Shown here one piece after another: positions 1 through 13,320 of a DNA stretch of 15,105 nucleotides; the first letter of the stretch is position 1, and every line of letters starts with the position of its first letter. The DNA is from a virus, in the UHGV virus genome UHGV-0264650, one strand, 5' to 3'. The position numbers and the translations under genes were made by a program. The notes under the pieces are model-generated. The model was not told the origin of the DNA. It made no database searches and worked only from the letters and a program-made list of their open reading frames with translations.

Positions 1-1262
1 CCTTTGTCACCAAGCCGATCAGCTTCCGATTTCTTCTCTTTTTTCTGTTTTTTCGGCTTGTCTACTGGCTTGTCGAATCCGGTAATCGCTCCGTCATTGG
101 CAGCATTCTGTTCATTTTTCCTTGCTTCTTCTGTAGCCTGGATTGCTGCGGTCAGATCATCCTGTAGTTGCATGACCTTGCCAACGGTCTTCCCGTATTT
201 CTTCTCGTAGTTGCTGTTATATTCGTCGGTTTGCTCTCCTACTACCTCCTTCACCCATTTATAGGCGTCCATTAGTGCCTTGATTGGCGTCACCATTGCG
301 ATGATCTTCTCGGCTACCTCGCCAGCCTTGATTCTGACATCTTCAAACATGTCGATGAATTCGCCACCAGCCGTCTTCAGGGTGTTAAAGCAGGTTTTAG
401 CGAAATCAGCGCCTTCACCTAAATCCTTAACAGCTTTCGTTACAAAATCGATACCAGCAACAACCGTATCGGATACACCGAAAAGATCATCCAATTGCTC
501 AACAAGTCCCATAACCTCGACTTTAAGCTCATTCAGGGCCATGCCGGATGTGCGCGGCAACTGCGCAAACTTCTCGTTTGTTTCCTGCGTAGCCGCCTGG
601 ATTGCGTTAACCATCCTTTCTGCCGTGATCTTACCGTCCAGCATTTCGGCGCGGAATTGGCCCATTGATAACCCCATCTGGCGTGCCATTGTCTGTACGA
701 TGGTCGGGGTGTTTTCTAACAGGCTGTTGAATTCTTCAGCGCGCAACACGCCACCGTCGATAGACTGACGGAATTGACGCATTGAGTTTGACATCTGCTC
801 CGCTGACGCGCCGCCCAACGCCCCCATTTTCTGAATCGTACCTACCAGGTTAAGCAATTGCCCTTCCGTAGCGGAGGTGTTTTTTAGTGAGATAGCCAGG
901 CCTTGCCATAATTCGCCAGTATCTTTCAGGCTCTGCCCCGTCTCCCTGGATATTTCTTTCAGACCATCAAAAACCCGCCCGGCAGATTCCGCGTCGCCTG
1001 TAAGCATTTTGATTTTGACGCGTAGCATTTTGGCCTGCTCTGCCATTTCCATAAACTGTCTAACGGCCTCGGCAGCAATTAGCAGATGGATAACCCTGGT
1101 CAGTGCTTTGATTGATGTTTTCAGTGTGTTTACCTGGCGATCGGCCTGTTTAGCACCGCGCTCTATACGGTCAAAGGCCTGGTCTGCCTGTCGTTGTGCT
1201 ACAAGAAGTTGTCCTGTTTTTGCGTCAACTTCGTAATAAATTGTGCCTACACTGGTAGCCAT
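1..1262 (-). CDS. Tail tape measure protein, N-terminal part (gene continues beyond the left edge of the window)
   Basis: Open minus-strand frame from ATG at 1262 (SD GAGG 7 nt upstream) with no stop to position 1. Translation starts MATSVGTIYYEVDAKTGQLLVAQRQADQAF and contains GGVLRAEEFNSLLENTPTIVQTMARQMGLSMGQFRAEMLDGKITAERMVNAI, which matches the conserved tape-measure N-terminal motif as I recall it. Position after tail tube and chaperone fits. Not in the ORF track because no stop lies in the window. Confidence 0.8.
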   Translation of the reverse strand, partial: MATSVGTIYYEVDAKTGQLLVAQRQADQAFDRIERGAKQADRQVNTLKTSIKALTRVIHLLIAAEAVRQFMEMAEQAKMLRVKIKMLTGDAESAGRVFDGLKEISRETGQSLKDTGELWQGLAISLKNTSATEGQLLNLVGTIQKMGALGGASAEQMSNSMRQFRQSIDGGVLRAEEFNSLLENTPTIVQTMARQMGLSMGQFRAEMLDGKITAERMVNAIQAATQETNEKFAQLPRTSGMALNELKVEVMGLVEQLDDLFGVSDTVVAGIDFVTKAVKDLGEGADFAKTCFNTLKTAGGEFIDMFEDVRIKAGEVAEKIIAMVTPIKALMDAYKWVKEVVGEQTDEYNSNYEKKYGKTVGKVMQLQDDLTAAIQATEEARKNEQNAANDGAITGFDKPVDKPKKQKKEKKSEADRLGDK

Positions 1263-1564
1263 GATTTAACCTCATGCAAAATGTGATCTATGTATCTATT
1301 TTATACAAAATGTCTTTATTTTAACGATACCGTTTTGTATAGGTGATGTAGAGAAAGATAGAAGAGATGCAGGAAGGCCGGATGTCCCGGAGGAAGTGAA
1401 AGAGGATAAGAAAATGAGAAACGTAAACTACCGCCCCAACGAATATGAACGCTATGCGAACCTTATCGAAGAAATGTTAAAAACACTTAAAAAATAAACA
1501 ATATGCGTGTATAACTAAGTTAAAGAAAGCATTTAGCAAATCAGAATAATTACAGGGGTTGATT

Positions 1565-2726: not shown

Positions 2727-3203
2727 TTATGCTGGCGGAACGTCGCCTACCGTTACCTTGCCAGCGCTTTCGCACTCAATAGACCAGGTGGAAACATCAT
2801 CATGCGGATCTTCTTCTTTAAAGGAAGTGCAAAGGAATGGGCCTTCAGTTACGTCTACAGGAGAAACGATCTTCAGCCATACATAAGGTTGTGATCCGGT
2901 GGTTTCACCTGGCGTAATTACGTGGCGTTTCAGCGCTTTCTGATTATGGATTTCTTCAGTGCGGGACACACCGTCGCCGGAGAAAGAAACGGATTTGTAA
3001 GTAACCATTGATTCTTTCGTGTAATCGGCTGATTTATCGGCGGTGGCGTCAGCGGCTTCCCATTCAACGGAAAGTGTTTTACCACGCATCATGCCTAACG
3101 CTTTGTACGCTCCAGCTTCCAGCTTCGCATTTGGACAAGCGATAGCGAAGAATACAGCAACGTCACGGCCTGTAAACGTGCCTTTTTCGCAAGTCTGAGA
3201 CAT
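2727..3203 (-). CDS. Putative major tail (tube) protein
   Basis: 158-aa ORF with SD AGAGGT 8 nt upstream of ATG 3203. Position immediately upstream of chaperone/tape measure, and followed by a terminator-like hairpin as is common for highly expressed tail tube genes. Family not verified. Confidence 0.5.
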   Translation of the reverse strand: MSQTCEKGTFTGRDVAVFFAIACPNAKLEAGAYKALGMMRGKTLSVEWEAADATADKSADYTKESMVTYKSVSFSGDGVSRTEEIHNQKALKRHVITPGETTGSQPYVWLKIVSPVDVTEGPFLCTSFKEEDPHDDVSTWSIECESAGKVTVGDVPPA

Positions 3204-5020: not shown

Positions 5021-5048
5021 AAAAAAAATCCCCGGCATTGCGCCGGGG
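5021..5048 (-). terminator. Intrinsic terminator (likely partial/attenuating) downstream of the major capsid gene
   Basis: On the minus strand: CCCCGGC-GCAAT-GCCGGGG (7-bp GC stem, plus 5030-5048) followed by A then TTTTTTTT (plus 5021-5028), 20 nt after the capsid stop at 5068. Confidence 0.65.
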
Positions 5049-5067
5049 AGCTACAGAAACATATCAA

Positions 5068-6132
5068 TCAGGTATTGCTGCCGTAGACCACTCCTGAACG
5101 ACCTTCCATGTCACGGGTGATTTGCAGACCCTCAGCGGACATGATGCGGAAGTTGTAGTTATCAGTCGGCATCATGCGCGGTAACGGTACAACACCAGTA
5201 GTCATACCAACCAGCGGGGTAATTACGCTACGGCTGCGCTGATAAGCAATGAACTCGTTGCCGGACAATGCATAGCTCTGGCGAATCTCACCAACCGGAG
5301 CGAACGGCATAATGACGCTCAGCACGCTACCGACTACAGCACCATTGACGATGTGCGGACGGGCCAGGTTAGCCATGATCTCAGGCGATACCCACATGAC
5401 GTCGTATTTAGCTACGAAGTTGGCGCGAGCCAGCTTGCCGAACTCACCAACGGTGAAGAAGTCAATGATCTTGTCGAAAACCGCAGTAGTCAGGTCGACT
5501 TTTGCGACGGTTTTTAGTTTAAGCTGCTGGGTGCTTTTGTGGTTTTTAATACCCATAGCTTTATGACCATCAACCACGATGCGATCGTTACCATTCAGGT
5601 AGAACTGGACGCGTGCTTTGTTGAATTTTTTCAGTTTCAGGCGCTGGCTATCCAGGGCAAGGTCGATGCCTACAGTATTCAAGCCCTGAGCGAGACGCCA
5701 GTTAACACCGTAACCAGCCGCGAACATCGGGATCGGGTCGCCATCGCTACCGTATTCGGTGTGATCAAAGCCGTGTGGCGCTTGACCATCCATAGACATC
5801 ACAACTTCATCATTGATGTCACCGGATACGTTGTACATTTTCAGCGTTTTACCGACTGGCAGTACGGTTTGTACACCCATCAGGTCGTTTACGATCTCAA
5901 TACCGATTTCTTCGGTGTTCAGTTCGATGATCTGGTTATCAATTTCTTTCCAGAATTCTCTTGCGAAGCCGCCGACGGCGTTACAGGCCAACATTTCAGC
6001 GGTCATGTTTGCTTTGTTTGCTGCAATCATGGCGTTATGCTGATCGTTGAAGATATTGCGTTGCGCCCACAGTTCTTTCCAATGGCTCTGCATCCGGGAG
6101 TTGGCGGCAAGGTTTTCTTTAGTAAAGTACAT
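5068..6132 (-). CDS. Putative major capsid protein
   Basis: 354-aa ORF with SD GGGGA 6 nt upstream of ATG 6132. Follows portal, F-like and scaffold-like genes, and is followed by a strong terminator. Size and position are typical of a major capsid protein; family not verified. Confidence 0.65.
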   Translation of the reverse strand: MYFTKENLAANSRMQSHWKELWAQRNIFNDQHNAMIAANKANMTAEMLACNAVGGFAREFWKEIDNQIIELNTEEIGIEIVNDLMGVQTVLPVGKTLKMYNVSGDINDEVVMSMDGQAPHGFDHTEYGSDGDPIPMFAAGYGVNWRLAQGLNTVGIDLALDSQRLKLKKFNKARVQFYLNGNDRIVVDGHKAMGIKNHKSTQQLKLKTVAKVDLTTAVFDKIIDFFTVGEFGKLARANFVAKYDVMWVSPEIMANLARPHIVNGAVVGSVLSVIMPFAPVGEIRQSYALSGNEFIAYQRSRSVITPLVGMTTGVVPLPRMMPTDNYNFRIMSAEGLQITRDMEGRSGVVYGSNT

Positions 6133-7868: not shown

Positions 7869-8813
7869 TTACTCCCAATCTTCGCCATATTTAGAGTGCG
7901 CAACCTTATAGTTTTCTTGCGCCCGATCTAATATTCGTTCGTTTAATATGTTACCGTCTTCGTCAACTAATACGGTAATCGTGCTACATTTGCAGTTAAT
8001 AGAATTTGGGGATCTGCTCCACCATTCGCGCTGCTCATCTATGGTGTATGTTTTCCCGTGCCGCTGCGCGTGCGATAGCCTGGTAGTCGGTGACAATGCC
8101 GAAATGTGCATTTGCATAGTGCGCAGATTAAATTCTTCTGTCGCCGCTTCTGCCTCATCCATACGCGCTGTGCGTAACGCTGTGCATATTTCAGTTCGAG
8201 CAATACGTTTGCATCTGTATAGCGGTAATTGCGTCTCCTGATTCAATGTGCGCGCTATTTCCAGTGGGTTTAAACCACGGGCCATACCTTCAGTTAATCG
8301 CCGGGCCATATCCTTTTTGATCTGTGCTGTCAGCCCGCGCATTTCCTCAAATACACGGGTACGGACCAGGGCAAGGCGCGTGCGGTAAGTCGTGCTGGAT
8401 AGCACGGCAGACACATCAGGATAGGCGCTTGAGTACGTGATAGACTGGTTAGCGAGGTTGGCATATTCCTGTGCCGTGCCGCGCTGATAAGCCACCTTCA
8501 CGTAATTCTGCCAAAACCAAAAACTTTCCGGGTCGGTTAGCTCGAATATCTCATCAATCATGTCGCTGGCGTCTTCCAGCAAGTCATGTAATTCGTCGAT
8601 GTAGATCTGGAAGGTGTATTTTTTATTAACAGCCAGGCTATATTGCATTCTGTCCAGTATGGCGATATATGGATCGGCAACTTTCTTCAGGCAGACTTTA
8701 AAACGCTTGATAGCACCAGACCTTAACTTCCCTGTCATGGTCGGGTCTTCGGTGTTAGATGGCATTATCGCGGCTGGAGGTATTCGCCTGATTATTTTCT
8801 TCACCTTCATCAT
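7869..8813 (-). CDS. Head morphogenesis protein, Mu F-like / SPP1 gp7-like minor capsid protein
   Basis: Open frame 7869-8819 (316 aa). Position immediately downstream of the portal gene is characteristic, and the central stretch RIARTEICTALRTARMDE fits this family as I recall it. Start is ambiguous: the ATG at 8813 has GAAGAGG 6 nt upstream and overlaps the portal 3' end by 59 nt. Confidence 0.65.
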   Translation of the reverse strand: MMKVKKIIRRIPPAAIMPSNTEDPTMTGKLRSGAIKRFKVCLKKVADPYIAILDRMQYSLAVNKKYTFQIYIDELHDLLEDASDMIDEIFELTDPESFWFWQNYVKVAYQRGTAQEYANLANQSITYSSAYPDVSAVLSSTTYRTRLALVRTRVFEEMRGLTAQIKKDMARRLTEGMARGLNPLEIARTLNQETQLPLYRCKRIARTEICTALRTARMDEAEAATEEFNLRTMQMHISALSPTTRLSHAQRHGKTYTIDEQREWWSRSPNSINCKCSTITVLVDEDGNILNERILDRAQENYKVAHSKYGEDWE

Positions 8814-10125
8814 CGTCATCCTCTTCCGTTTCTACTTCACTGGCTGGGCCATCGTATCCGGCAGCCTCGCGGATCTCATCGCCGCTAAATATTTCTTCAC
8901 CAGTAGCCAAACAAGCCTGATTGATTTGCGCCATCTTGTCTGCGGCTTCCAGTAGCTCTGCTTTGGTCATGGCGTTAAGGTCGTCCCATAGCACTGATAC
9001 ATCTACTGGCATACTGATAAGGCGTAGATCTGCCATCTTGCGGAACAGATCTTCAATCTCGCCACCGATTTCCTCCCTGCGGGTCATGCAGCGGCTGTTG
9101 AAGTAACGCAGGTCTTCTGTTGATGCGCGTTCTCCCTGCTGGTTCCCAACCAAGATGCGGGTTGGAATATCAACACCAGCGGCGGCGGTTTGCAGGTTTA
9201 CGTCATAGGTTGATGACGGGTCAGATACGGCAGTAACCAGCGGGCTTACTGTCGCACCCTGTAACGCCATCATTACGTCATTACCCTTATTCATTTCAGC
9301 CGCAGCCTCATTGAATCTTTCGCGTAACTCTGTAACGTCGCAATCGTATGTTGCAGCCAGGGAGCGGAAGTCAATCTCTTTATCGAACGAAATGGCAAGC
9401 TGACGCGCTGCGTTTTTCAGGAATGATTCACCACTACCGCCTTCCACTTTTTCCAGTGATACGAATGCGTTGTAGGAAGGTTCAAGGAAAGCGATGACAT
9501 CATCAGAATAGTCGCCAAAGATAAATATGCGGTCAGGGTGGATCTTTCTGGCAATGGTCTTACTGTTAATGCGTTCTTTGTATTCCCACCACGTTGGCAG
9601 GCCATAGTTTTCATTATCCGGGTTTTCTTCGAAGTCCTTCGGTGTAAGAGCGCCAGCCCACACAGGGGTAAATTTTGCAATGCCTACGCCTTTTGTCACT
9701 GGCTGATCCCACGGCTTGTTATCTCTGATATGAATTAACAGACCAGAGTAACGACCAATGAGGCGGCGGCGATCACATTCAGCAACAGTGCGCCAAAATC
9801 TGTTGTTAAATTTCTTCTTGATTTCTCTTTCCCACGGCGTTTCCTTTTTCGCTTTCTCGTCTTCAGTTCCTTCAATCATCTTTGGCTTGGTGCGCCAGCA
9901 AGTCGTAACAATCTTTTCTACAGCACCGTGAGCGATGCCGCCGCGTCTGTACAGTTTGTATAGATCGTGATACGTGATCTCTTCTTTGAATCCGTATTCG
10001 CTCCACGCAGCATCACGTTTGGCATCTATCCCCATAGTGAACGGATGTGCCGCTGCATAGCGGGCAAAGGCCGCCTGGCGTTGTGACAAGGCAGCATTAA
10101 CCGCCAATTCTAAATTGGATGGCAT
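8755..10125 (-). CDS. Portal protein
   Basis: ORF-track ORF 8755-10146; the ATG at 10125 has an AGGAGT SD 7 nt upstream, the 10146 ATG has none. 456-aa product with an acidic C-terminal tail (ETEEDDDDEGEE). Position between large terminase and the F-like gene. Family not verified. Confidence 0.7.
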   Translation of the reverse strand: MPSNLELAVNAALSQRQAAFARYAAAHPFTMGIDAKRDAAWSEYGFKEEITYHDLYKLYRRGGIAHGAVEKIVTTCWRTKPKMIEGTEDEKAKKETPWEREIKKKFNNRFWRTVAECDRRRLIGRYSGLLIHIRDNKPWDQPVTKGVGIAKFTPVWAGALTPKDFEENPDNENYGLPTWWEYKERINSKTIARKIHPDRIFIFGDYSDDVIAFLEPSYNAFVSLEKVEGGSGESFLKNAARQLAISFDKEIDFRSLAATYDCDVTELRERFNEAAAEMNKGNDVMMALQGATVSPLVTAVSDPSSTYDVNLQTAAAGVDIPTRILVGNQQGERASTEDLRYFNSRCMTRREEIGGEIEDLFRKMADLRLISMPVDVSVLWDDLNAMTKAELLEAADKMAQINQACLATGEEIFSGDEIREAAGYDGPASEVETEEDDDDEGEENNQANTSSRDNAI

Positions 10126-10236
10126 AATGTTTACTCCTGAATACATGTTTACGCGTTGCTACGCGAAAAATAGAAAAACTTGTGGGGGATTGTGAGACAG
10201 ATTTTATGTAGCCAATTGAGAATTATTCTTGTTCAT

Positions 10237-10255
10237 CTTCGAAAATTTTTCGAAG
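10237..10255. repeat. Perfect 19-bp palindrome CTTCGAAAA-T-TTTTCGAAG in the TerL-portal intergenic region
   Basis: Read directly from the sequence: two 9-bp arms that are exact reverse complements around a single central T, inside an unusually long (148 bp) AT-rich gap within the late operon. Confidence 0.6.
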
Positions 10256-10273
10256 TTGATAATAATCAATAAC

Positions 10274-11752
10274 TTAAAATCCGCGCAGGCGTTTAGGTAA
10301 CATAAGACCCATCGCCTGTGGTTGGCTTAATTCAGTGATCCCCCATACCATCGCATCCATACGGTCAGGGGATTTTTTAGCGGTAGCTGGCACATATTCC
10401 ATCATTTGATTTTCCAGCGTGTATAGCTCACCAGTGTGTGCCACCCTTCCTTGTGCATACAGTGCCGATATTGGTTCAGCGCGGGCGAATTTACCTTTAC
10501 TTGCGTGCACCTTAACAATGCGGCCTTTGAATCCGGCATTGCGTAGTGTGGCCTCTGCCATATCACCACCCTGGTTGGTTTCGATAACCATCGCGTCAGC
10601 TTCATGGATGTTGTAGGCGTTCATTGATGCCTGCGCCCAGTCGTTAGGTGACATACGGCCTGAATAGTCGCCATCAACAGAATACTGAGCATTCTTGCCA
10701 CCACCATAAGCGGAACATGCCATGATCCCCGTTTCGTCCGACTCATCAGATGATGTTGTCGCCGGGTCAATGGCTATCACAGTGCGGATTTTCTCCTGCG
10801 TTATCTGCATTCGGTGTGCTGCGGTTATCATTGCTTCAGTCCACAATGCGCCTTCTTCGTCGAATTTACGCGGGCGCTGCATGTACTGGGCTTCAAATGA
10901 CCGTCTGTGCGCCTTCAGTCCGGCTTCATGGGTGTCATTGTGTTTTTTAGGCCATAGCCAGCCGTCCGGCAGGTTGTGAGCGATAGGAATGGCGAACTCG
11001 TTTTCAGGGTACAGATCCCAATAATCCAGGCTGTTGTCGATCTTCACTGGCAGGTTAAGGTGATACCACTTTTCACCACTGCCGCCGCGTAACAGGTAGC
11101 CGGACAAATCATCGTAGTGGATGCGCTGCATGATGACGATAACAGGCGTTGTTTGCACTGCCAGACGCGATGCAAGCGTATCGTTATAGTTGGTGTTCAC
11201 CTGCTTTCTCACCACGTCAGAGTAAGCGTCAGCGGGTTTTAATGGGTCGTCGATGATTAACGCGCCATTAAATCCTGATTCCATGTACCCCGCACGGAAC
11301 CCGGTCACCTGACCAAGTGATGACGTTGCATACACGCCGCCGCCGTATTCGGTCCACCACATCGATTTTGAGTTGGCATCGTTGCGGATCTTCATGGGCC
11401 ACATTGCCTGATAGTCAGGCGTACAGATCATGTTTCTTACAGTCGAGGAGTTGAGTAGCGCCAGGTTGTTGGAATAGGAAACGTGAAGGAATCTTGTGCG
11501 GGGATTTATTGCGAGGGACCGCGCCATCATATTGATAGTCGCGATCATGGTTTTGCCGTACCCTGGGGGAATGTTAATGATGAGTCGGGTTATCTCACCA
11601 TTAATAACGCGTTGCAGTGCATCACGGATGGCTAAATGATGGCCTGAGATTAACATCTTCGTTCCGTTCGCTTGTTTATAGAAGTAGCGATTGAAAAACA
11701 GGCCATCGTTTTCACATTTGGACTGAATAACTCGTTCTTTGATTGTCAACAT
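10274..11752 (-). CDS. terL: Terminase large subunit
   Basis: ORF-track ORF 10274-11758 starts at GTG; the ATG at 11752 has GAGGTG 5 nt upstream and lies 2 nt after the TerS stop. Contains a Walker A-like P-loop (PPGYGKT), a Walker B-like hydrophobic stretch ending in acidic residues (GALIIDDP), and a C-terminal region with conserved acidic residues (VIAIDPATTSSDESDETG) consistent with the nuclease domain. Confidence 0.85.
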   Translation of the reverse strand: MLTIKERVIQSKCENDGLFFNRYFYKQANGTKMLISGHHLAIRDALQRVINGEITRLIINIPPGYGKTMIATINMMARSLAINPRTRFLHVSYSNNLALLNSSTVRNMICTPDYQAMWPMKIRNDANSKSMWWTEYGGGVYATSSLGQVTGFRAGYMESGFNGALIIDDPLKPADAYSDVVRKQVNTNYNDTLASRLAVQTTPVIVIMQRIHYDDLSGYLLRGGSGEKWYHLNLPVKIDNSLDYWDLYPENEFAIPIAHNLPDGWLWPKKHNDTHEAGLKAHRRSFEAQYMQRPRKFDEEGALWTEAMITAAHRMQITQEKIRTVIAIDPATTSSDESDETGIMACSAYGGGKNAQYSVDGDYSGRMSPNDWAQASMNAYNIHEADAMVIETNQGGDMAEATLRNAGFKGRIVKVHASKGKFARAEPISALYAQGRVAHTGELYTLENQMMEYVPATAKKSPDRMDAMVWGITELSQPQAMGLMLPKRLRGF

Positions 11753-11754
11753 AA

Positions 11755-12240
11755 TCACACCTCATCTTCAACTTCCTGGACGATGCGGGCGATCTCTTCT
11801 TTCGTTACTTCAACCCGGACGGGTGCTTCCTCCCTGTTGCCGACGATCTCCTGTGTGACGCGTTCACCATATTTACGCGGTTGCAGTTTTGCCAGTAACC
11901 ACTTGCGCGTTTCAATCATCAGTTGATGGCGGCGGCATTCATCTTTATCAATGTTCTCCGCTGCATCGGCTATATCTATGATTTCATCAGCCAATACCTC
12001 AAACCCTATTTCCTTCGCGCGTATGTACATGTCCGAAAACTCCGGAACATCTCTGAACCATTTAAGGATTGTCGAACGCGTTGGCATACCTGGCATCTTC
12101 GAGATCTTATTAATACTCTTACCGTCCGCCACCAGCTCACAGATCTCTAATGCCTTTTCTTCGGTATAACCATGCGGACGGCCCACCCTTTTTGCGGCTG
12201 GCTTTTTATCGTCAGCCTTCGCCTTTTTCGTGCGGGCCAT
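11755..12240 (-). CDS. terS: Putative terminase small subunit
   Basis: 161-aa ORF directly upstream of and translationally coupled to TerL. Basic N-terminus (MARTKKAKADDKKPAAKRVGRP) followed by a helix-turn-helix-like segment, acidic C-terminus. SD GAGGTG 4 nt upstream of ATG 12240. Confidence 0.7.
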   Translation of the reverse strand: MARTKKAKADDKKPAAKRVGRPHGYTEEKALEICELVADGKSINKISKMPGMPTRSTILKWFRDVPEFSDMYIRAKEIGFEVLADEIIDIADAAENIDKDECRRHQLMIETRKWLLAKLQPRKYGERVTQEIVGNREEAPVRVEVTKEEIARIVQEVEDEV

Positions 12241-12250
12241 AATTCACCTC

Positions 12251-12496
12251 TTAATTATCTTTTTCAAATCTTAATTTAAATTCATTCATCATCTTTTCTA
12301 CTTCCTGTTCGGAAAGATAGATGGTTTCATTATTTTCTGCTGAATCAAGTGCCTTTCTTATTTCATCTGCTATTTTTAGCTCCTCATCGTTCACAACGTC
12401 ACCTTTTAATATTTGTTGATGATATATACGCAAGCCACAAAACTTGCGCAGTATGTTAATACTTCCAACCAGTCGAATAGCTCTTTCACTGTTCAC
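12251..12496 (-). CDS. AT-rich hypothetical protein (81 aa from GTG 12496, or 47 aa from GTG 12394)
   Basis: Open frame ends 10 nt before the TerS start. The first in-frame start (GTG 12496) has GAAGG only about 1 nt upstream; the internal GTG at 12394 has AGGTGA 4 nt upstream. Acidic product (..DEELKIADEIRKALDSAENNETIYLSEQEVEKMMNEFKLRFEKDN). Noticeably AT-richer than the neighbouring terminase genes. Confidence 0.4.
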   Translation of the reverse strand: MNSERAIRLVGSINILRKFCGLRIYHQQILKGDVVNDEELKIADEIRKALDSAENNETIYLSEQEVEKMMNEFKLRFEKDN

Positions 12497-12499
12497 CCT

Positions 12500-12571
12500 T
12501 CACATAATCGAAAGCGCCCATGTAATAAGGACGATAGCCAAAACCATATAGATAAAATCTGACTCTCTCAT
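12500..12571 (-). CDS. Mini-ORF 9 of array: 23-aa hydrophobic peptide MRESDFIYMVLAIVLITWALSIM
   Basis: ATG 12571 with strong SD AAGGTGG 5 nt upstream; the SD overlaps the stop of mini-ORF 8. One predicted transmembrane helix. Confidence 0.4.
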   Translation of the reverse strand: MRESDFIYMVLAIVLITWALSIM

Positions 12572-12585
12572 ATTGTCCACCTTAC

Positions 12586-12654
12586 TTACGCAAAGAAAAT
12601 GATAACAGTTAACAGCGAACTTATAGCCATGATTAAGAAATCGCGGTCAGACAT
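12586..12654 (-). CDS. Mini-ORF 8 of array: 22-aa hydrophobic peptide MSDRDFLIMAISSLLTVIIFFA
   Basis: ATG 12654 overlaps the 3' end of mini-ORF 7 (out of frame); only a weak GGGG about 10 nt upstream. Hydrophobic C-terminal half. Confidence 0.25.
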   Translation of the reverse strand: MSDRDFLIMAISSLLTVIIFFA

Positions 12655-12721
12655 TGATAATAAACCCCACAATAACAACCGCTGCGATACATACGAATAA
12701 TACAGCTTCGATAGTTTCCAT
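12647..12721 (-). CDS. Mini-ORF 7 of array: 24-aa hydrophobic peptide METIEAVLFVCIAAVVIVGFIINV
   Basis: ATG 12721 with SD AGGTGA 4 nt upstream, overlapping the TAG stop of mini-ORF 6 (TAGGTGA-N4-ATGGA). Resembles mini-ORF 4 at the N-terminus (M-D/E-x-x-E ... C at position 11). Confidence 0.4.
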   Translation of the reverse strand: METIEAVLFVCIAAVVIVGFIINV

Positions 12722-12729
12722 ATATTCAC

Positions 12730-12798
12730 CTATTGAGTCAGCGCGGTCATGGTAAGAACAATCGCAACGATCAGGAAAAAGAAATCAAGCCATTTCAT
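12730..12798 (-). CDS. Mini-ORF 6 of array: 22-aa hydrophobic peptide MKWLDFFFLIVAIVLTMTALTQ
   Basis: ATG 12798 overlaps the TGA stop of mini-ORF 5 (ATGA); SD GGGAG 8 nt upstream. Confidence 0.35.
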   Translation of the reverse strand: MKWLDFFFLIVAIVLTMTALTQ

Positions 12799-12860
12799 TT
12801 TTTAAACTCCCGATAAACATCTACGGCAATGACTACAACTACAGCCACCAGCAATAGCAT
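12795..12860 (-). CDS. Mini-ORF 5 of array: 21-aa hydrophobic peptide MLLLVAVVVVIAVDVYREFKK
   Basis: ATG 12860 lies 1 nt after the stop of mini-ORF 4 (TGA-G-ATG); weak SD, so expression would depend on coupling. Confidence 0.25.
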   Translation of the reverse strand: MLLLVAVVVVIAVDVYREFKK

Positions 12861-12861
12861 C

Positions 12862-12969
12862 TCATATGCGTTCATTGACACTACCTATAACCAGACCAAT
12901 GATGATAATTACGGCTACTACGCCCAACATCATTCCGCACATAATAGCCAGTAGTTCGAATATATCCAT
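12862..12969 (-). CDS. Mini-ORF 4 of array: 35-aa hydrophobic peptide MDIFELLAIMCGMMLGVVAVIIIIGLVIGSVNERI
   Basis: ATG 12969 with SD AGGTGA 4 nt upstream, overlapping the TAG stop of mini-ORF 3. This is the C-terminal part of ORF-track ORF 12862-13074, whose N-terminal half is a read-through of intergenic and other-frame sequence. Confidence 0.4.
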   Translation of the reverse strand: MDIFELLAIMCGMMLGVVAVIIIIGLVIGSVNERI

Positions 12970-12977
12970 GCAGTCAC

Positions 12978-13052
12978 CTATACAACATTTTTCCACCAGA
13001 AATAGATAATGACGGCGACCAACGACCACCAGATAGGACCGTAAATATTCAT
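12978..13052 (-). CDS. Mini-ORF 3 of array: 24-aa hydrophobic peptide MNIYGPIWWSLVAVIIYFWWKNVV
   Basis: ATG 13052 with GAAGG 8 nt upstream; Trp-rich single hydrophobic segment. Confidence 0.3.
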   Translation of the reverse strand: MNIYGPIWWSLVAVIIYFWWKNVV

Positions 13053-13130
13053 GGTGAATACCTTCAGCTTTCAATGAATATCATGATCGCCAGCCATACA
13101 GCGACGCATAAAGAAAGGATAACGAGCGGG

Positions 13131-13247
13131 TCAATCATCTCGCCCCTCCAACCAGTGCTTGATCTTTGCGTTTATTAGTGCAACTGCAATAAAACCCACC
13201 AGATATACAGAAATGCCGATCAATCCGGCAATGATATAATCATCCAT
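13131..13247 (-). CDS. Mini-ORF 2 of array: 38-aa membrane peptide MDDYIIAGLIGISVYLVGFIAVALINAKIKHWLEGRDD
   Basis: ATG 13247 with GGTGA 8 nt upstream (the SD lies in the last codons of mini-ORF 1). One hydrophobic helix followed by a charged C-terminal tail. Confidence 0.35.
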   Translation of the reverse strand: MDDYIIAGLIGISVYLVGFIAVALINAKIKHWLEGRDD

Positions 13248-13251
13248 AACA

Positions 13252-13320
13252 TTATTCACCGACCAGTAATATTACAGCGGCAGCCATTCCGATAAATAAA
13301 CCTGACAGAAAAGTAAGCAT
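13252..13320 (-). CDS. Mini-ORF 1 of array: 22-aa hydrophobic peptide MLTFLSGLFIGMAAAVILLVGE
   Basis: ATG 13320 lies 2 nt after the TGA stop of the 185-aa gene, with GGGGGTGA immediately upstream (coupled start). Confidence 0.35.
   Translation of the reverse strand: MLTFLSGLFIGMAAAVILLVGE

Follow-up and report, generated by a model that had tools for sequence, protein, structure and literature searches.

The window analysed here is the whole 15,105-nucleotide stretch of viral DNA, and the late genes in the part considered below all lie on its minus strand. Two of them enclose a long intergenic gap. On the upstream side is the ORF of the large terminase TerL (10274-11758, minus strand), which was recognized by Pfam Terminase_6C (1.3e-11), ends with the stop codon TAA at 10276-10274, and shows about 89% nucleotide identity to the mEp021 junction, where the gene is annotated as "putative terminase large subunit". 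The true start of TerL is likely the ATG at 11752, giving a gene of 1479 nt as annotated in mEp021. On the downstream side is the portal protein gene (8755-10125, minus strand; Pfam Phage_portal_3, 5.7e-19), annotated as "portal protein" in both mEp021 and MagusPhagus, which starts with the ATG at 10125-10123 behind a Shine-Dalgarno sequence AGGAG at 10138-10134. RefSeq (PGAP) calls the same protein "anti-CBASS protein Acb1 family protein" at loci L003-L010, and NCBIfam gave no match; the Acb1 name looks like a misnomer that has spread across E. coli prophages. The ORF ends, together with the portal ATG and its Shine-Dalgarno sequence, place the gap at 10126-10273, so that the 148 nt given for it in the earlier note were confirmed, as was its AT-richness (GC 0.324, versus 0.47 for the window).

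The other genes had been described as lying 0-20 nt apart or overlapping, which is broadly correct, except for the spacer 3' of the major capsid gene, which measures about 29 nt by the ORFs of the window and 65 nt by the annotation of the related prophage L113. The major capsid gene (5068-6132) is followed immediately by a strong terminator-like hairpin, TCCCCGGCGCAATGCCGGGGA and then T8, at 5029-5049 on the minus strand, which probably attenuates read-through. Another terminator-like feature was found at 2693-2708, between the ORFs 2727-3203 and 1994-2680, where the perfect G+C palindrome GGGGCCAAATGGCCCC is accompanied by a T-run on the minus strand. Upstream of the small terminase gene, the stretch 12250-13300 is AT-rich (GC 0.35-0.42 where profiled, 12100-12499), and several of the best promoter-like matches of the window fall within 12633-12968, such as TTGACA-17-AATGAT at 12875-12903 on the plus strand.

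The window shares 87-91% identity with the phages mEp021, mEp044, mEp013, mEp554, mEp515, mEp010, and MagusPhagus, and 85-96% identity with prophages in 35 complete E. coli genomes. It is a member of the mEp021/mEpimmI group of temperate E. coli phages. The mEpimmI group has been described (PMC11893012), in a paper that is silent on the TerL-portal gap.

Comparison with these relatives showed that the gap is composite. Its promoter-distal part is a 78-nt spacer (10126-10203) that is common to all mEp021 (mEpimmI) group phages, and the remainder is a polymorphic insertion of exactly 70 nt (10204-10273, minus strand, GC 0.257) placed directly after the TerL stop codon. In an alignment of 12 junctions, with about 65 relatives listed, the insertion behaved as an exact 70-nt indel between flanks that were otherwise colinear, the short form reading GGATTT-TAAAATC and the long form GGATTT-TAAGTTATTGATTATTATCAACTTCGAAAAATTTTCGAAGATGAACAAGAATAATTCTCAATTGGCTACA-TAAAATC. 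Owing to a TAA at both borders, the placement is ambiguous by 3 nt (10204-10273 or 10207-10276). In the short forms, the corresponding site is the midpoint of a short AT palindrome, between ATTTT and AAAAT, which spans the TerL stop. The long form was present in 14 of the 49 IMG/VR contigs that carry the spacer of the group (the other 35 being short) and in the prophages of 9 of the 35 complete E. coli genomes, and it was found in none of the seven cultured phages named above. Overall, the insertion was missing in about 70% of the close relatives that share TerL, portal, and spacer. Since all seven cultured phages and most relatives do without it, the insertion is dispensable for growth and packaging.

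Two variants of the insertion were distinguished. Variant A has TAA on both borders, and variant B (L019-L022) carries three substitutions in the 3' part of the insertion, one of which removes the downstream TAA, so that one border reads CAA. The 10-codon ATG ORF in the insertion (MNKNNSQLAT, ATG at 10232) was rejected as a gene because it has no usable Shine-Dalgarno sequence and its stop codon is lost in variant B.

The perfect 19-bp palindrome reported for the gap was recovered at 10237-10255 as CTTCGAAAA-T-TTTTCGAAG, with 9-bp arms and a 1-nt centre; the full palindrome, CTTCGAAAATTTTTCGAAG, lies wholly inside the 70-nt insertion. As a single strand it would fold into an 8-bp stem with a 3-nt loop, with a DNA folding energy of -8.4 kcal/mol (z -4.4). 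No other palindrome in the window combines arms of 9 bp or more with a loop no longer than 5 nt. Dinucleotide shuffles yielded 0.47 such palindromes per window, with at least one in 31% of the shuffles, and the chance of finding one in the 148-nt gap alone was 0.7%. The palindrome is therefore real, yet not statistically remarkable at the scale of the window. No second copy was detected in the window (up to 3 mismatches) or in a 50-kb long-form prophage (up to 4 mismatches). An intrinsic terminator was rejected, as only 3 of the 8 stem pairs are G-C and the stem runs into AUGAAC when read on the minus strand and into UUGAUAAU when read on the plus strand; consistent with the opinion of the earlier note that no obvious terminator is present, the scan returned no terminator-like site in 10126-10273 on either strand. 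The promoter scan found no promoter-like site adjoining the palindrome on the transcribed strand. The lone promoter-like match in the gap is weak (9/12) and lies on the non-transcribed strand, and the window has fewer such matches than its shuffles.

The comparison with related phages that had been proposed for the palindrome was run, and conservation was not what it returned. The palindrome is absent, with the whole insertion, from the roughly 70% of relatives that have the short form, and among the 14 IMG/VR carriers it is perfect in 11 and broken in 3 (L041, L042, and L046) by a T-to-C change in one arm that is uncompensated. Among close relatives the palindrome thus appears largely unconserved.

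Most of the insertion could be traced to a gene. The stretch 10217-10276 is homologous, on the plus strand, to codons ~48-68 of a Roi-like anti-repressor gene, with 50 identities in 60 ungapped positions. The match of 60 nt, at 82-83% identity, had an E value of 5e-8 in a blastn search of 28 Gb of E. coli genomes, and a pairwise comparison gave 5e-12. In the window the homologous stretch is sense on the plus strand and hence antisense to the late operon. Its relic frame reads ..LRIILVHLRKFFEVDNNQ* and is truncated on both sides, leaving about 20 codons that end in a stop; the plus-strand ORF at 10180-10272 was rejected as a gene, being simply this relic frame. No homolog was detected for the last ~10 nt of the insertion (the region 10204-10216).

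The source ORF encodes 200 aa and is located in a prophage-like island adjoining eutA in strains such as ATCC 8739 (L012, 3600-4202; a second prophage-like island locus is L110, 5368-7560). Matches of the 200-aa ORF to the Roi proteins of Stx phages were obtained by tblastn, and the alignment with Min27 Roi covered residues 3-131 at 33% identity (E 1e-18) and was ungapped over the fragment (residues 45-68). In addition, the motif EV(D/E)NNQ within the fragment recurs in distant members of the Roi-like family. The direction of transfer runs from the gene to the fragment because the segment is integral to a conserved Roi-like protein domain. The homology shows about 60 of the 70 nt to be a truncated internal piece of a Roi/Rha-like anti-repressor gene.

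The distribution of the sequence was followed by blastn of a 73-mer query against E. coli genomes, phages, and plasmids, and by a degenerate pattern that covered both versions. The degenerate pattern had no match in the species-representative genomes, 11 matches in IMG/VR, all of them at TerL-portal junctions, and 11 matches in 241 million metagenome records, divided between 6 junctions and 5 Roi-like genes. The insertion sequence was not found in plasmids by blastn. Only two contexts, the TerL-portal junction and the Roi-like gene, therefore occur in the scanned collections, and the insertion is not a multicopy mobile element. No donor gene closer than 83% identity was found. A word-based protein search recovered nothing beyond the cluster of the gene itself, and a full HMMER search of 1.84 billion representatives returned distant Roi-like relatives only, none of them with the KFFEVDNNQ variant. 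A TerL scan of the species-representative genomes for intermediate forms in other species yielded only distant relatives in Providencia and Pasteurella.

No full Roi-like gene was found in the window or in the long-form prophage. With most of the eutA-side island loci, the window shares only the 60-nt fragment. The metagenome contig L110, which is of the island type, also matches the start of the tape-measure gene of the window; the island tape-measure start is 80% identical over 60 nt to that of the window (~1212-1271, minus strand). Of the three readings in the earlier note, the closest is that the gap might hold what is left of an excised element, for instance a homing endonuclease. A fragment of a gene is indeed present, but the gene is Roi- or anti-repressor-like. 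A homing-endonuclease remnant was rejected, since Pfam and PHROGs gave no endonuclease family, Rfam gave no intron, and the homology is Roi-like. Nothing in the comparisons suggests that a whole element would have been inserted at the junction at some time.

The coding ancestry also offers an account of the palindrome. The corresponding place in the Roi-like gene is occupied by the imperfect palindrome CTTCGA-AAAAAAA-TCGAAG, with 6-bp arms and a 7-nt loop, which encodes ..LRKKIEV... Compared with this gene, the phage copy shows four adjacent A-to-T changes that turn loop into stem and extend the arms to 9 bp. This region of the gene is a strong quasi-palindrome in its own right: in the gene copy of ATCC 8739, an independent A-to-T change produced perfect 10-bp arms, TCAACTTCGA/TCGAAGTTGA, with a DNA fold of z -4.4. 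Hairpin-templated (quasi-palindrome) mutation characteristically leaves adjacent substitutions that, as a block, increase self-complementarity, and from this pattern such a mutation would have produced the four A-to-T changes; alternatively, a donor that was not sampled may have had them before the transfer. In both cases the palindrome is explained by coding-sequence ancestry together with a known mutational bias, and a binding-site function is not needed. Adenine-specific divergence of the kind produced by diversity-generating retroelements (DGR) was rejected on inspection of the alignment and annotation: although 8 of 10 differences affect adenines, four of the 8 are contiguous, adenine makes up 47% of the background, and a reverse transcriptase is lacking.

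The portal leader, the 53 nt at 10126-10178 on the minus strand, is common to long-gap and short-gap relatives and nearly invariant (pi 0.007) across about 65 junctions of the mEpimmI group, against a pi of 0.15-0.19 at synonymous sites. The remaining part of the ancestral 78-nt spacer (10179-10203, minus strand) is variable, with a pi of 0.11 and 11 segregating sites in 28 columns among the long forms. The leader contains a hairpin, CGCGU-AGCA-ACGCG at 10165-10152, with a 5-bp G+C stem that is present in both RNA folds. Its loop varies (AGCU, AGCG, AGAA), and the closing U-A pair is changed to U-G in L010, L049, and L050. The leader also contains a second in-frame ATG at 10146 and a direct repeat, GUAAACAU, with ATGTTTAC at 10127-10134 and 10145-10152. 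The portal leader probably acts in the control of portal at the level of translation or RNA, and it is a better functional candidate in the gap than the insertion. In mEp021 (L001 3490-3547, compared with window 10100-10146), ATTATATTGCGTTTATT replaces ATTATGCCATCCAATT around the second portal ATG; as the ATG proximal to the Shine-Dalgarno sequence is thereby absent, mEp021 must start portal at the upstream ATG or at a TTG.

Comparison of the backgrounds showed how the insertion is passed on. Between the window and the near-identical short-gap relative L015, there were no differences from TerL -1078 to -122, 11 differences from TerL -121 to -19, a different spacer, and 9 differences in the first 1300 nt of portal. 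In the comparison with the long-gap relatives L003 and L048, on the other hand, the window was identical from -150 to portal +33/+75 and strongly diverged beyond these limits. These patterns identify the window as an L015-like backbone with a patch of ~300-370 nt from a long-form donor. The patch, comprising the last ~120-150 nt of TerL and the gap (window ~10150-10397), matches without a single difference long-form relatives whose sequences diverge by 10-15% elsewhere. The insertion therefore moves among phage backgrounds by ordinary short-patch homologous recombination. Crossovers also occur inside the insertion, since that of L106 is a hybrid.

Among 24 long-form loci, the diversity of the insertion (pi 0.013) was far below that at the third codon positions on its TerL side (0.19) and portal side (0.15). 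The insertion was found on at least six flank haplotypes, with the nearest differences only 2-10 nt from its borders. Such low diversity would fit a young insertion spreading by recombination, and purifying selection would explain it equally well. Recent spread by recombination requires unusually tight exchange boundaries, and in that scenario mismatch repair would trim the flanking markers and leave the 70-nt loop unrepaired. Close to the end of TerL (10277-10285), CGCGGA is replaced synonymously by CGAGGG in some long forms only (L008, L019-L022, L103, and L106) and never in short forms. This synonymous pair suggests either a second, older long-form lineage or arrival of the insertion from a diverged relative with a few flanking bases.

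We regard the insertion as a gene-fragment scar, an ordinary relic of recombination that carries no dedicated function, and consider this the probable explanation, with moderate confidence. It combines an exact presence/absence polymorphism, colinear homology to an intact gene from which only an untranslatable fragment is left, and dispensability. Illegitimate recombination would have placed the fragment between ATTTT and AAAAT across the TerL stop, either through direct capture of filler DNA or as what a later deletion left behind of a larger insertion. The insertion itself most likely has no function. At most it would add a hairpin to the late mRNA between TerL and portal, and portal translation would depend on the conserved leader and the Shine-Dalgarno sequence, which are the same with or without it. 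Confidence in the scar explanation is moderate mainly because young age and selection would each explain the low diversity.

The TerL-portal boundary is plastic in this lineage, as distant TerL relatives (55-77% amino acid identity) hold unrelated content at the junction, which ranges from -1 to 554 nt. Unrelated junction insertions were observed in L056/L061 (2457-3010), L069/L071/L078 (3980-4208), L076/L059 (3986-4107), and L074 (3986-4187). What these distant relatives have at the junction is either an ORF, of 138 aa (membrane-type), 76 aa (conserved), or 34 aa (proline-rich), or an intrinsic terminator consisting of GGCTGCCGCCCGGCGGCC and T6.

Among the other explanations, the one that survives best is that the insertion is a selected cis-element, acting either as a late-mRNA hairpin or fold that would tune stability, processing, or the TerL:portal ratio, or as a DNA site for a dimeric protein. 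Its diversity comes near that of the constrained portal leader, although the insertion is found on six or more flank haplotypes; folded as DNA, the single strand is more stable than its shuffles (z -2.9, -3.7); and the palindrome is perfect in most IMG/VR carriers. The RNA fold of the gap, however, was not significantly better than shuffles (z -1.2, -1.4), and an Rfam scan of 9900-10500 with E up to 10 gave nothing relevant, only a chance-level match outside the insertion (E 7.5). The insertion is also missing in most close relatives and in every cultured phage, the palindrome is broken uncompensated in three loci, and its palindromy was inherited from coding sequence. A selected cis-element is thus possible but doubtful. 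The regulatory operator put forward in the earlier note would agree with the palindromic form but is not supported, given its absence from ~70% of relatives, its breakage in 3 of 14 carriers, the lack of an adjoining promoter on the transcribed strand, and the lack of a second copy in the prophage. A related and bolder version, in which the insertion is a recently recruited and selectively maintained RNA hairpin module or antisense decoy that has been driven through the mEpimmI population, appears unlikely to us; if true, selection would explain the near-invariance on at least six flank haplotypes with boundaries a few nucleotides from the ends.

A MITE-like or PATE-like non-autonomous mobile element, or a homing footprint, that inserted itself at the TerL stop is very improbable. 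The TAA at both borders resembles a target duplication, the target is a short AT palindrome, the ends of the insertion can pair with each other in the fold, and tracts of identity hug the insertion in several backgrounds. However, the TAA border is not kept in variant B, the terminal pairing relies on G-U pairs and is weak as DNA, and no homology to homing endonucleases was found. E. coli genomes, IMG/VR, and the metagenomes contain a single insertion site, the other context being the colinear coding sequence of the Roi-like gene, and transfer into the window is explained by the homologous patch of ~300 nt that includes the flanks.

Some terminases recognize sites that include palindromes, and this one adjoins the terminase genes, but a part in pac or cos recognition, the packaging-related site of the earlier note, would be hard to credit when the entire segment is missing both from phages with a TerL 94-99% identical and from the cultured members of the group. 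That the late transcript of the fragment serves as an antisense decoy against the anti-repressor of a competing prophage or satellite is purely speculative and most improbable: the orientation antisense to the late operon, the 60 nt of similarity to a Roi-like gene that belongs to a different prophage-like element of E. coli, and the low diversity of the insertion would suit it, but the only known target is just 83% identical with a 4-nt block of mismatches midway, and no better target was found in the searched collections.

Read as a gene-fragment scar, the insertion advises caution, in that a perfect palindrome of regulatory or packaging-like appearance in an unusually long gap was inherited from an unrelated coding sequence and is dispensable. 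It would also provide a small, clean example of gene-fragment capture at a gene boundary, of the apparent perfecting of a quasi-palindrome, and of how an indel spreads on recombination patches a few hundred bases long.

The insertion can be compared with several known systems. Roi of HK022 and the Stx phages, a DNA-binding protein and anti-repressor of the Roi/Rha type, represents the family of the donor gene of the fragment, but the window retains about 20 codons and no start, from which no Roi-like protein is possible. Accessory ORFs occur at the terminase-portal junction of related phages; the junction is the same, whereas the insertion of the window encodes nothing plausible. Quasi-palindrome mutation (hairpin-templated, by template switching) was reportedly defined by Ripley and is said to have been studied in E. 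coli by Lovett and colleagues. The likeness here is the AAAA to TTTT cluster that perfects an imperfect palindrome, from 6-bp arms and a 7-nt loop to 9-bp arms; unlike that process, the central base was changed as well, although pairing makes no demand on it, and the changes may be older than the transfer. Finally, "novel joints" arising from illegitimate recombination are said to have been described for lambdoid and HK97-like phages in literature of the Hendrix and Juhala type. The insertion differs from such mosaic-joint relics in being very short (70 nt), in lying inside a colinear module and not at a point of module exchange, and in its unusually uniform sequence. Like them, it is a short, truncated, unexpressed piece of a gene exactly at a gene boundary, with a presence/absence polymorphism that has spread by homologous recombination in the flanks.
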